64,000 nt of DNA from a virus. Shown here piece by piece: positions 11,972-15,157 of this stretch; within the stretch, counting starts at the first letter, position 1, and each line of letters begins with the position of its first letter. The translations under genes were made by a program, and so were the position numbers. The notes beneath the pieces are model-generated. The model was not told the DNA's origin. It made no database searches and saw only the letters and a program-made list of their open reading frames with translations. The stretch spans positions 1 through 64,000 of IMG/VR virus record IMGVR_UViG_3300031823_000004. One strand, 5' to 3'.

Positions 11972-14900
11972 ATGCACCCGTTCGGTTTCGACGCGGAGAC
12001 ATCGTCTTTCGTCAACCTGAATCTGGGTGCCGACGCCTACACCCGCGACCCTCGCACCCGCTGCCTGATGTTCGCCCGCAAGCCAATCGGCATGAACACC
12101 GCACCACGGCTATGGCGCGAAGGCGATCCGGTGCCGTACGACATGATCGGCCACATAGCGAACGGCGGCACCTTTTCAGGCTGGAACGTCATCGGCTTCG
12201 ACCGGCTGGTCTACCAGCGCATCATGGTGCCGCAGCACGGCTTTCCGCCGATCTCCGACGACGCCTGGAAAGACAGCATGCACCTCGCTGCGGCGGCGAA
12301 CCTGCCGCGCAGCCTGGACGGCTGCGCCAAGGCGGTGGGCGTCCAGCATAATGTGGACCTGAAGGACACCAACCGCATCCGGCGCATCACCGACGCCAAC
12401 CGGACGCCTCTCCCGGCGCCGGTGGGTGAAATACTCGACTACCCGGAGCGGTTCCAGCATATCCGCACGACGCCGCAGTACACTCTGGTGGACGATCTCC
12501 AGTGGCTTGCCGCGCGCTGCATTCAGGACGTGGAGATGGAGGAGCAGGTTTTGCTCCGGCTGCCGCCGTGGCCCAGCATGGAGCCGTGGGTCAGCATGCC
12601 AGCGATCGACCGGCGCATCAACGACCGTGGGGTGATGATCGACCTGCCCCTGGTGCACGGCTTAGCCCACGCCGCAGCGATCGAGACCGCCAGGCTGGAC
12701 AGCATGATGGACAAGCTGACCGGCGGCGAGGTGGCCAAGACCACCAACATCGAGTCGCTGAAAACGTGGCTGGTCGCCCGGAAGGTGGAACTGCCGCTGA
12801 ACGACGTGAAAGCGGAAGACGAGGGTGACGAGGACGAAGAGGATGACAGCGATCCGAAGCCCAAAGGCGGCCGGGAGTCACCCTGGCGGCTGCGCAAGAG
12901 CGATATCGCCGACCTGCTGGCCCGGACAGACATACCGGAAGAGTGCCGTCTGGCGCTTAGCTGGCGGGCCGAGGCGGCGAAGGCCTCTACCGCCAAGCTG
13001 CGCGCAATGGCGCGGATGGCCGACGATGACTGGCGGCTGCGCGGGATCCTGCTGCTGGGCGGTGCCCAACAAACGATGCGGTTTTCATCGGTAAAAGTCC
13101 AGCTTCACAACACGTTACGTGACGCCTTTGCCAATCTGGACGACATTGCCGACACCAACGGGCTGAACACCAAGGCGGACGCGGAAAAGGTGCATCGTCT
13201 GGCCGAGGTGGCGCTCGCCGCGGCGATCGAAGTCGGACGCACCGGCGACGTCGACCTGATGCGCTCGATGTACGACGTCACGCGCCGGGACGCGCAGGGG
13301 CGGTCCTACCACTCCGGGGTGATTGCCTGGATCGCGCGCATGGTGCGCCGCTGCATCACCGTGCGCGACGGCATGCTGCTGCTGAACGGCGACTGGGCGC
13401 AGGTCGAGGCGCGCATCACCGTCTGGCTGTCGCAGCAGACGGACATGCTCCAGGCCTTCGCCTCGGGCGGCGATGTCTACCGGATCGCGGCCGCCGGGAT
13501 CTTCCGCTGCGGCGTCGAGCAAATCACCAAGCTGATGCGGCAAACCGGCAAGGTCTGTATCGCAGAAGGGTCTCTGGTCCTGACCAACCAAGGCTTAGTG
13601 CCTATAGAAAAAGTTACTACTTGCATGAGGATTTGGGATGGTATAGAGTGGGTAGCCCACAGCGGTGCAGTGTGTAACGGATATGCCGATACAATCGAAT
13701 ATGACGGACTCAGAGCCACTCCGGACCATCTTGTCTGGACGGAAGGGCAACAAACCCCGATGGAGTTTGGAGACGCCGCCTCCGGCAAGATCAGTCTCGC
13801 TAGAACCGAGTATCGTGGGAAAGCGCTACGGCTGGGTGACGATTGTATCCGTAGAAAAAAGAGAGGTAAGTCAAGGGAACTGGTACGTCGCGACACGCTG
13901 CGAAGGATGTGGGAGTACACAGTGGACGTATCTGTTCAATTTGGTAAGCGGTCGGTCGAAAGGTTGTCAGCAGTGTTCTCGACCAAGACGAGTTCCGATA
14001 AAATTGGACCGAGTGCTTACGGATGCGCGTATGCGATGTCAGAATGCTACCCATCCGAATTTCAAGAATTACGGAGGCCGCGGCATACAATTTCTTTTTC
14101 CGTCTGTTTTAGAAGCTGGTTTATGGGTCCAAGAAAATCTTGGACCGAAACCAGACAGAGCGGAGTTGGACAGAAAAAACAACAACGGGCACTACGCTCC
14201 TGGCAATCTACGATGGACTACGCGCAGCCAGAATTTACTGAATACCAGGATAAACAGGTTCGTGACCTACGCCGGGAAACAAGTTCCGCTGCTTCATGCG
14301 GTTCACGTCATTCGAACATTGCGTCCGAAATGCCCGTATGCGGACAACACACTGAAGCGTCTGCTGGATGCGTACGAATCGATAGAGGGGTTGCTGAGCC
14401 GAATAGACAAACCGCCACGTACGGCAAAGCCACGTGGCGTGTATGGGACATTCTCAACGCCGGACCCCGAAATCGTTTCACTGTATCTGGACGTTTAGTG
14501 CACAACTGTACACTGGCACTGGGCTTTGGCGGCGGCCCCAACGCCCTGGTTGCGATGGGCTACAATTACGGGCTGCTGATGAATACCAAAGAGGCGGCGC
14601 CGATCGTGCAGGCCTTCCGCGAGGCGAACGGCGCTACCAAGGCCTATTGGTACGCGACCGACGACTGCGCCGCTATGGCCGTCCAGTACCCCGGACGGGA
14701 GTTCCCGGTCCCTCCCCTTGGGCTGGTGACGTATTTCGTGACGCCGGGGGAAGACTGCCTGTGCTGCCGCCTCCCCAGCGAGCGCCTGCTGCGCTACTGG
14801 GCACCGCGGCTGCGGCAAGAGTACTGGGCGGACGGCAACCCGAAAAGCCGCCTTAGCCTTAGCGGGCTGGCGATCAAGGGCAGGGCGGTGTTCCGCCGGT

Positions 14901-15157
14901 CGCTGTACCATACGATCCTGGTGGAGAACCAGGTGCAGGCTATCGCCGCGGACTTGCTGGTGACCGCACTGGGCAACGCCGACCGGAACGGGATATTGGT
15001 GGACCTGCATGTGCATGACAACCTTGCTGCCGAGACGCGCAAGGATGACATAGGATGGAGCCTGCCGATGTTCCGTGAGTGCATGATGGACATGCCGCGC
15101 TGGACCGCCGGGCTCCCCATCAATGTCGATATTGAAGCCGCAGCGAGGTTCGGGTGA
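11972..15157 (+). CDS. polA: Family A DNA polymerase with 3'-5' exonuclease, interrupted by an intein
   Basis: Exo FDAETSS, WN..FDR, C.QDV; DRRINDRGV; motif A GDWAQVEAR; motif B RQTGKV/CTLALGFGGG; ENQVQAIAAD; motif C HVHDN. Confidence 0.92.
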   Translation: MHPFGFDAETSSFVNLNLGADAYTRDPRTRCLMFARKPIGMNTAPRLWREGDPVPYDMIGHIANGGTFSGWNVIGFDRLVYQRIMVPQHGFPPISDDAWKDSMHLAAAANLPRSLDGCAKAVGVQHNVDLKDTNRIRRITDANRTPLPAPVGEILDYPERFQHIRTTPQYTLVDDLQWLAARCIQDVEMEEQVLLRLPPWPSMEPWVSMPAIDRRINDRGVMIDLPLVHGLAHAAAIETARLDSMMDKLTGGEVAKTTNIESLKTWLVARKVELPLNDVKAEDEGDEDEEDDSDPKPKGGRESPWRLRKSDIADLLARTDIPEECRLALSWRAEAAKASTAKLRAMARMADDDWRLRGILLLGGAQQTMRFSSVKVQLHNTLRDAFANLDDIADTNGLNTKADAEKVHRLAEVALAAAIEVGRTGDVDLMRSMYDVTRRDAQGRSYHSGVIAWIARMVRRCITVRDGMLLLNGDWAQVEARITVWLSQQTDMLQAFASGGDVYRIAAAGIFRCGVEQITKLMRQTGKVCIAEGSLVLTNQGLVPIEKVTTCMRIWDGIEWVAHSGAVCNGYADTIEYDGLRATPDHLVWTEGQQTPMEFGDAASGKISLARTEYRGKALRLGDDCIRRKKRGKSRELVRRDTLRRMWEYTVDVSVQFGKRSVERLSAVFSTKTSSDKIGPSAYGCAYAMSECYPSEFQELRRPRHTISFSVCFRSWFMGPRKSWTETRQSGVGQKKQQRALRSWQSTMDYAQPEFTEYQDKQVRDLRRETSSAASCGSRHSNIASEMPVCGQHTEASAGCVRIDRGVAEPNRQTATYGKATWRVWDILNAGPRNRFTVSGRLVHNCTLALGFGGGPNALVAMGYNYGLLMNTKEAAPIVQAFREANGATKAYWYATDDCAAMAVQYPGREFPVPPLGLVTYFVTPGEDCLCCRLPSERLLRYWAPRLRQEYWADGNPKSRLSLSGLAIKGRAVFRRSLYHTILVENQVQAIAADLLVTALGNADRNGILVDLHVHDNLAAETRKDDIGWSLPMFRECMMDMPRWTAGLPINVDIEAAARFG
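13556..14506 (+). mobile_element. 317-aa intein in polymerase motif B
   Basis: Starts CIAEGSLV, block B ATPDHLV, ends VWDI...VSGRLVHN followed by Cys+1; excision restores motif B; visibly lower GC than flanks. Confidence 0.92.
13683..14498 (+). CDS. HNH-type homing endonuclease overprinted in the +1 frame of the intein (start uncertain)
   Basis: CEGCG..L.SGRSKGCQQC, RC.N......YGGRGI, LDRKNNNGHYAPGNLRWTTRSQN. Confidence 0.85.
   Translation: MPIQSNMTDSEPLRTILSGRKGNKPRWSLETPPPARSVSLEPSIVGKRYGWVTIVSVEKREVSQGNWYVATRCEGCGSTQWTYLFNLVSGRSKGCQQCSRPRRVPIKLDRVLTDARMRCQNATHPNFKNYGGRGIQFLFPSVLEAGLWVQENLGPKPDRAELDRKNNNGHYAPGNLRWTTRSQNLLNTRINRFVTYAGKQVPLLHAVHVIRTLRPKCPYADNTLKRLLDAYESIEGLLSRIDKPPRTAKPRGVYGTFSTPDPEIVSLYLDV

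Follow-up and report, generated by a model that had tools for sequence, protein, structure and literature searches.

An intein in a phage family A DNA polymerase gene overprinted in the +1 frame by an HNH-like endonuclease gene

In the textbook view, intein homing endonucleases are in-frame domains. Other layouts have been described. A cyanobacterial dnaX intein contains an out-of-frame LAGLIDADG gene as a +2 open reading frame (ORF), in a paper that credits Gorbalenya 1998, 'Non-canonical inteins' (Phillips, DeSimone and Gogarten, bioRxiv 10.64898/2026.09.14.751524). Non-canonical inteins of actinophages carry an endonuclease VII-like gene in 'frame 3' or antisense LAGLIDADG and Vsr-like genes; invasion of an intein by a free-standing gene is the origin proposed for them (Gosselin, Arsenault and Gogarten, bioRxiv 10.1101/2025.01.02.630785). 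Fractured genes with GIY-YIG and Vsr-like genes are also known, an HNH fracture being only suggested (Dassa et al. 2009, PMC2677866), and a phage methylase gene remains open despite a ShiLan-type insertion in which an HNH gene is hidden out of frame (Arsenault et al. 2025, PMC11855218). Here, we analyzed an intein in the family A DNA polymerase (PolA) gene of the IMG/VR record IMGVR_UViG_3300031823_000004, which is overprinted in frame +1 by a nuclease-like gene. The window, i.e., the whole stretch of DNA that was analyzed, comprises the first 64 kb of this 81,340-base soil-phage record, classed as linear and about 87% complete.

The general kind, an intein endonuclease in another frame, is already in print; the present case differs in the nuclease family, the host gene and the frame. 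The locus resembles the actinophage inteins in that an endonuclease gene in a separate frame (or, there, on a separate strand) lies between splicing blocks while the host frame stays open, and in that the endonuclease is kin to free-standing phage genes (10.1101/2025.01.02.630785). It differs from them in that the host is a family A polymerase and the gene, read in frame +1, is of the phrog_374 type and encodes a core bearing Arg; the same-strand actinophage case is endonuclease VII-like and in 'frame 3', and the polymerase host listed there is Pol III alpha. An overlap between the present family and that set is possible. Frame-dependent selection, with a conserved endonuclease frame, a relaxed host frame and mini-intein relatives, is shared with the dnaX intein (10.64898/2026.09.14.751524), although the latter has LAGLIDADG in the +2 frame of bacterial dnaX and ours has an HNH-like protein in the +1 frame of a phage polymerase. 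The out-of-frame gene inside an open host gene recalls the ShiLan-type insertion, which is without splicing domains, whereas the element in the window has intein blocks at both ends; the translation route of the hidden gene is an open question there, as here (PMC11855218). Among the papers listed by a literature search, none appeared, judged by title or the start of the abstract, to report on a family A polymerase intein that harbors a nuclease gene of this family or any nuclease gene out of frame; supplements of the preprints may list related cases.

The anatomy of the polymerase gene and its intein is given in Table 1, in which L118 is an intein-less relative (related loci are designated by L and a number). 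The Pfam DNA_pol_A model matched PolA amino acids (aa) 455-529 (2.2e-15), and the match ended where the intein starts. The intein opens at TGT 13556, directly after GKV, and closes with His-Asn at 14501-14506, its C-terminal end reading ...RFTVSGRLVHN; the next codon, 14507-14509, is Cys. The initial annotation had placed an intein with intact splicing blocks in motif B of PolA, and the diagnostic residues were indeed all present: the N-terminal Cys, the Thr-x-x-His of block B, and His-Asn followed by Cys. The N-terminal splicing part was 51-62% identical to that of relatives by tblastn, and the same extent is retained in natural mini-inteins. The linker between the two splicing parts was rich in Arg and Lys (0.185), with a grand average of hydropathy of -0.9. 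When the intein was read in the polymerase frame, no match to any endonuclease model was obtained in Pfam, NCBIfam and PHROG searches, in agreement with the earlier claim that the in-frame middle lacks endonuclease motifs; the sole PHROG match was to a family of unknown function, at residues 20-71. A blastn search of the intein against phage records returned one weak partial match only. By analogy with cultured phages, which carry such inteins in the polymerase gene, the intein in the window probably splices.

Table 1. Features of the polymerase gene, its intein and the overprinted gene in the window
Feature	Coordinates	Strand	Remarks
Family A DNA polymerase (PolA) gene	11972..15157	+	1061 codons plus stop; ORF reads straight through the intein
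N-extein	11972..13555	+	Ends ...RQTGKV; aligns with intein-less L118 up to ...RQTGKV
Intein	13556..14506	+	951 nucleotides (nt), 317 aa; Cys1, ATPDH in block B, terminal His-Asn
N-terminal splicing part	13556..13843	+	Contains blocks A and B and extends to ...ALRLGDD; shared with the +1 gene from 13701 on
HNH-like endonuclease gene, frame +1	13701..14498	+	265 codons from the conserved ATG, plus TAG
Polymerase-frame linker	13844..14428	+	195 codons; stop-free; protein not conserved
Four-Cys zinc-ribbon-like segment of the +1 protein	13899..13976	+	C67, C70, C89, C92; invariant in intein-borne and free-standing relatives
Core of the +1 protein	14070..14243	+	YGGRGI through ELDRKNNNGHYAPGNLRW to N181
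C-terminal splicing part	14429..14506	+	ATWRVWDILNAGPRNRFTVSGRLVHN; shares its DNA with the end of the +1 ORF
C-extein	14507..15154	+	Starts with the +1 nucleophile Cys, CTLALGFGGG...; L118 has SILALGFGG at the same place

Frame +1 of the intein was open from GTG 13665 to the TAG at 14496-14498, a length of 834 nt. As had been annotated, this stop codon ends 8 nt before the intein end, and both frames stay open for more than 800 nt. Three candidate starts exist in the window: GTG 13665, ATG 13683 and ATG 13701. The gene was initially placed at 13683-14498; its end stands, and its start moves to ATG 13701, the one kept among relatives. This ATG (intein nt 146) was present in 32 of 37 nonredundant loci, where it sits within Tyr-Asp/Glu codons of the polymerase frame, and relatives have a GAgGT motif 8 nt upstream of it. 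In the remaining five loci, the +1 frame is open further upstream and contains other ATGs there. The position of the +1 stop varies by lineage and lies 8 nt (window) or 50 nt before the intein end or 22-31 nt into the C-extein. No second copy of the nuclease gene was found in the window's own 81-kb record.

The predicted +1 protein matched PHROG families named "HNH endonuclease" (phrog_374, 1.7e-25, residues 50-207; phrog_3377, 3.4e-20; phrog_2081, 2.2e-7) and, weakly, a PHROG named endonuclease VII (3.7e-5), with no LAGLIDADG or Vsr match. Profile searches of the two frames thus agreed with the annotation of the nuclease in frame +1 and not in frame 0. The protein was 40-62% identical to the +1 ORFs inside other inteins. 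In its core, YGGRGI is encoded at 14070-14087 and ELDRKNNNGHYAPGNLRW begins at 14163; the invariant core residues are Y124, R127, G128, I129, D157, R158, Y165, N169 and N181. Intein-borne, split-form and free-standing members have in common the four Cys residues, R112, YG.RGI and an (E/S)xDRxxNxxxYxxxNxRW...N core. A helical C-terminal part follows the core; in the version of phage APSE-2, it gave weak helix-turn-helix matches (best E value, 0.005) below the Pfam cut-offs. A search of PDB sequences with the nuclease profile retrieved no nuclease and only a weak likeness to the zinc ribbon of ribosomal protein S27e (E value, 1.3). The domain order equals that of free-standing phage genes annotated as HNH endonuclease. 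The aligned free-standing members include orf78 of Pseudomonas phage D3 and a gene of a Staphylococcus phage, with HNH endonuclease as their RefSeq name. Since the N termini of the free-standing proteins fall at about the start of the intein-borne core, the first ~37 and the last ~25 to 35 residues of the intein-borne ORF are taken as extensions over the splicing blocks.

Next, the variation within the family was used to determine which frame is under selection. The set consisted of 87 loci with a gap-free 309-aa intein, reduced to 37 at 90% nt identity, and included the annotated phages L001 and L002; the values below refer to these 37 loci. In the N-terminal part (intein nt 1-144), the variation at polymerase-frame positions 1, 2 and 3 was 0.27, 0.17 and 0.62, and the aa identity in frames 0, +1 and +2 was 0.68, 0.32 and 0.30, respectively. 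In the nuclease core (nt 256-720), the corresponding values were 0.58, 0.30 and 0.23 for variation and 0.32, 0.65 and 0.33 for identity. With this distribution of variation, the wobble position of the core is that of frame +1, and the aa identity in frame 0 was level with that in the control frame. Where the +1 ORF overlaps the splicing blocks (nt 145-255 and 847-927), variation was low at all three positions. Between the window and L119 (Nei-Gojobori method, 197 codons), the proportions of nonsynonymous (pN) and synonymous (pS) differences were 0.272 and 0.802 in frame +1 and 0.446 and 0.254 in frame 0; only the frame-to-frame contrast in pN/pS is meaningful here because the overlap biases such ratios. 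Purifying selection on the +1 frame, raised as a check in the initial annotation, was thus found.

The polymerase frame showed another kind of constraint. The core contained on average 0, 0 and 9.9 stops per sequence in frames 0, +1 and +2, respectively. We shuffled synonymous +1 codons among positions of the same amino acid and counted the stops arising in the polymerase frame. For the window, 10.6 such stops were expected, none of 2,000 shuffles was open, and none was observed, so that two open frames here go well beyond what chance would give. Across the set, the shuffling predicted a mean of 9.7 polymerase-frame stops, with no more than 0.75% of shuffles open in any locus. At the codon level, a T-ending +1 codon never occurred before a codon starting with AA, AG or GA (0 of 2,213 versus 1,412 of 5,039 before other codons); in the window the counts were 0 of 51 versus 46 of 152 elsewhere. 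Stop avoidance was found by the same test in L119, in Salmonella phage vB_SenS-Ent1 (Ent1) and in APSE-2. Therefore, the +1 protein is the target of selection in the middle of the intein, and the polymerase frame is only kept free of stops.

We then looked at how widespread this layout is. When 50,697 phage records were searched with the +1 protein by tblastn, 512 of them matched. The seven best matches (40-47% identity; E values, 4e-52 to 4e-47) fell within genes annotated as DNA polymerase, one in Gardnerella phage vB_Gva_AB1 and the others in six Streptococcus phages. In all four GenBank phages inspected, the nuclease was in frame +1 of an annotated, uninterrupted polymerase coding sequence. 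Four collection scans covering three collections provided 258 further loci, to which a single classification was applied; for three of the four scans these loci are a subset of the matches, with 80 of 322 confirmed matches for the metagenomes and 80 of at least 563 for the second viral scan. A contiguous intein with the nuclease in +1 and a stop-free polymerase frame was found in 216 of the 258 loci, which form 111 clusters at 90% nt identity. The other classes were small: intein halves split by stops or in different frames (17 loci); the N-terminal part and the nuclease in +1 with the C-terminal part not found, owing to a contig end or a polymerase frame ending early (12 loci); a mini-intein without the nuclease core (6 loci); the nuclease alone (4 loci); an apparent frameshift (2 loci, L070 and L196, the latter on a contig of about 1.6x coverage); and a mini-intein with the nuclease gene downstream (1 locus, L068). 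Inteins of this kind are called a rarity in the dnaX paper (10.64898/2026.09.14.751524), whereas the present family comprises at least 111 clusters; the layout is far commoner than the 'rare' of the literature. An origin from an in-frame domain through two compensating frameshifts was considered and set aside, since no contiguous locus among the 258 had the nuclease in frame 0. We favor an origin in which a free gene invaded the intein.

Comparison with L118 and other relatives pointed to a mobile element. L118, 80% identical to the window in the matched polymerase segment, is intein-less and reads RQTGKV/SILALGFGG where RQTGKV[317 aa]CTLALGFGG stands in the window; the element is thus a precise in-frame insertion. 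The G+C content was 0.512 for the intein versus 0.656 and 0.647 for the exteins. The insertion site of the window, right after GKV, is common to L119 and L120 (60-62% identical) and to the Ent1 intein. In most Firmicute-type loci, the element lies four codons downstream (...AELA/CGYGG), and others occur at further positions in or near motif B. The insertion points fall 1-6 residues past the motif B lysine (GKV/C, AKT/C, AKTS/C, GKVANL/C, KIAELA/C and KNTNFAV/C), a pattern that suggests repeated small shifts of the insertion site within the intein family. Homologous modules with a +1 nuclease were not confined to polymerases; several sites in SF2 helicases (ResIII plus Helicase_C) also carried them. 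In a quick tree of the nuclease cores, most forks of which were weakly supported, the window grouped with L119 and L143 and the APSE-2 nuclease stood beside the free-standing D3 orf78; this arrangement hints at more than one nuclease capture.

Cultured phages carry related elements. The PolA inteins of Ent1, a Jerseyvirus, and of APSE-2 have an N-terminal splicing part related to that of the window (33-49% identity). In Ent1 (L265:2501-3397), the intein occupies the same site as in the window (GKA/C...HN/CELGLGYEGG), and an unannotated ORF of 247 codons, of the same nuclease family, differs in lying in frame +2; in the record, the intein is described merely by the words 'encoding splicing domains'. 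In APSE-2 (L266:2501-3500), the intein is at another polymerase site and contains an unannotated ORF of 216 codons of this nuclease family in frame +1. A preprint on APSE genomics mentions only the differential loss of the intein.

Split forms were found as well. L245:1746-4550 and L259:1719-4567 are fractured family A polymerase genes consisting of three ORFs. The first comprises the N-extein plus the N-terminal part of the intein and stops shortly past block B; a separate HNH-like gene, of the same nuclease family as in the window, starts inside it, in L245 at an ATG homologous to 13701. The third ORF has its own start (ATG in L245, GTG in L259), overlaps the end of the nuclease gene and carries ...VYDI.NCGPR.RF...LVHN plus the C-extein. 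This is the layout described by Dassa et al., with a free endonuclease gene between the intein halves whose 3' end runs over the start of the C-terminal piece; unlike those fractured genes, the intein in the window is contiguous and the polymerase ORF continuous (PMC2677866). Fifteen further loci resembled the fracture of L245 and L259, by frame analysis only.

Natural mini-inteins in the family span 133-168 aa, and truncated +1 ORFs of 152-217 codons also occur. The mini-inteins L064, L065, L067 and L112-L116 retain ...RAIRLGE, which overlaps the first conserved residues of the nuclease core, and those of L064 and L112 still hold about 50 nuclease codons. Judged from these remnants, they look like deletion derivatives of full elements and not like ancestors.

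The explanation that we consider likely is that a composite mobile element, made of an intein and an overprinted +1 gene for a nuclease-like protein, invaded the family A polymerase gene and spreads by homing. In its favor are the two-frame anatomy and its conservation, the frame-specific selection, the avoidance of stops, the foreign base composition and the existence of a closely related polymerase whose site is empty. The intein would be of a class-1 type, its two splicing parts joined by about 195 codons that also encode a separate +1 protein, which resembles free-standing phage homing endonucleases in its zinc ribbon, HNH-like core and helical tail. A ribosome translating the polymerase frame would traverse the linker, for which the only requirement would be the absence of stop codons, and the intein would then excise itself by splicing and thereby restore motif B of the polymerase. 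The nuclease-like protein would be made separately off the same mRNA, by internal initiation at ATG 13701. It may cut or nick intein-less polymerase alleles near the insertion site, after which repair would copy the intein and the nuclease gene together. The initial annotation had likewise read the layout as a free HNH gene residing in a mini-intein, with nuclease expression uncoupled from that of the polymerase; both points gained support, and of the two expression routes it offered, a +1 frameshift is less likely than internal initiation.

Several observations weigh against this explanation. In HNH (His-Me finger) enzymes, the general-base His follows the conserved Asp. In this family, an invariant Arg directly follows that Asp (D157, R158; 11 of 11 diverse members and 31 of 31 intein-borne ones). 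The +1 protein had no match in Pfam or NCBIfam; Pfam HNH_3 was reached only below threshold, in its C-terminal part, by 5 of 31 relatives (best E value, 0.0033), and the nuclease of L245 scored 15.8 bits against a cut-off of 24.8. Because of the Arg in place of His and these subthreshold matches, we call the protein HNH-like and treat cleavage as inferred; the 'complete HNH-type nuclease' of the initial annotation is upheld by the PHROG matches as to family, and the word 'complete' is not. The intein of the window had no match to Pfam or NCBIfam intein models either. Hint_2 was reached at an E value of 0.05 in one of seven related mini-inteins, and a mini-intein profile weakly matched nine PDB sequences (E values, 0.07-0.67), all nine of them split inteins; RefSeq annotates the homologous Ent1 element as an intein. 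As for expression, a Shine-Dalgarno-like motif is missing before ATG 13701 in the window, while the closest relatives L119 and L120 have AAGAGG; a consensus scan found no sigma-70-like promoter within 13300-14700; and no RNA run was among those listed as containing the stretch.

The missing start signal and promoter could mean that the +1 gene is a relic in this phage, which arrived by homing and is no longer made or active while the intein persists by splicing. The truncated +1 ORFs and mini-inteins show that such decay happens in the family. We regard this as unlikely for the window, in which the ORF is still full-length and none of the 14 residues that never vary among intein-borne and free-standing relatives has been lost, and in which pN is far below pS in frame +1 against L119; moreover, a high-GC host may not need a strong Shine-Dalgarno motif. 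The Arg found in every aligned member and the lack of a match to curated HNH models would also fit a protein that has lost the catalytic His and is not a nuclease, with a DNA-binding or helper role in an element that spreads otherwise. This appears quite improbable, given that the Arg-bearing family is abundant as free-standing genes (558 phage records), that it sits between split-intein halves exactly at the position of a homing endonuclease gene, and that the presence or absence of the intein among close relatives fits homing.

A programmed +1 ribosomal frameshift, yielding a nuclease fused to the N-extein and the N-terminal intein part, was considered as well, since the open +1 frame of the window reaches back beyond the conserved ATG to 13665 and the Shine-Dalgarno motif is absent. 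We think it very improbable: in 20 of the 37 relatives only one or two codons separate the last +1 stop from the ATG, this ATG and the upstream GAgGT are conserved, and split forms have the nuclease as a free gene with its start at the same ATG. There is practically no chance that the layout is an assembly or sequencing artefact, in which two compensating indels displaced an in-frame HNH domain. Nothing in favor of it was found for the window, and an apparent frameshift was seen only in L070 and L196 among the 258 loci. The +1 layout recurs in 216 loci from three collections and in four GenBank phages, and errors would not produce stop avoidance in the polymerase frame. In addition, a 31,745-nt Logan contig from a soil metagenome run covered 13300-14800 with 0 differences and 0 gaps; this contig is an independent assembly but not an independent sample because that run may be the source of the window. 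A 247-nt contig, assembled from a freshwater run in a different study, was identical to the window over 13970-14216, and a 189-nt piece was identical to the window as well. Reads with compensating indels, which the initial annotation had named as grounds for rejecting its claim, are thus not indicated by these assemblies.

Beyond the composite element itself, a broader reading is possible, which we hold tentatively and rate below an even chance. All of these loci might belong to one large undescribed superfamily of mobile intein-plus-nuclease modules, in which a His-less HNH-like gene, in frame +1 or +2, is written over an intein. With the overlap kept, the module would have reached many sites in no fewer than two host gene families, and it would also be the source of split inteins in fractured polymerase genes. 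If so, overprinting and gene fracture would be two outcomes of one invasion, and the Arg-for-His core would add a new catalytic type to the His-Me fingers.

Split inteins serve widely as tools for protein ligation. The present family may offer living intermediates both for their origin and for the acquisition of endonucleases by inteins. It shows at scale that a nuclease gene of a free-standing type can live in the other frame of an intein whose host frame is only kept stop-free. Gene callers miss such overprinted genes, as the annotation of the Ent1 intein illustrates. Cultured phages (Jerseyvirus, APSE and a Gardnerella phage) provide systems in which internal initiation and homing could be studied, and the invariant Arg in place of the catalytic His raises a direct question on how the core works.

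Some loci showed further peculiarities. In L070:2820-3960 (Eubacterium plexicaudatum ASF492), a one-base frameshift in the N-terminal splicing part breaks the polymerase frame; L005, a viral contig with an intact frame, shares the first twelve intein residues and the flanks of L070. In L012 and L017, the polymerase frame stops inside block F (...GVYDIP) and unrelated sequence follows, with the +1 nuclease ORF intact, and the C-terminal part of the polymerase gene seems to have been lost or displaced. L140 and L142 have an N-extein as in L012 and L017, and the C-terminal part is likewise missing. Identical or nearly identical polymerase-intein proteins were found in L043, L045-L048, L101-L103 and L111, on contigs assigned to different genera (Ectobacillus, Soehngenia, Tissierella and a Desulfitobacteriia metagenome-assembled genome) and on several viral contigs; this set may reflect either a single widespread element or faulty binning.

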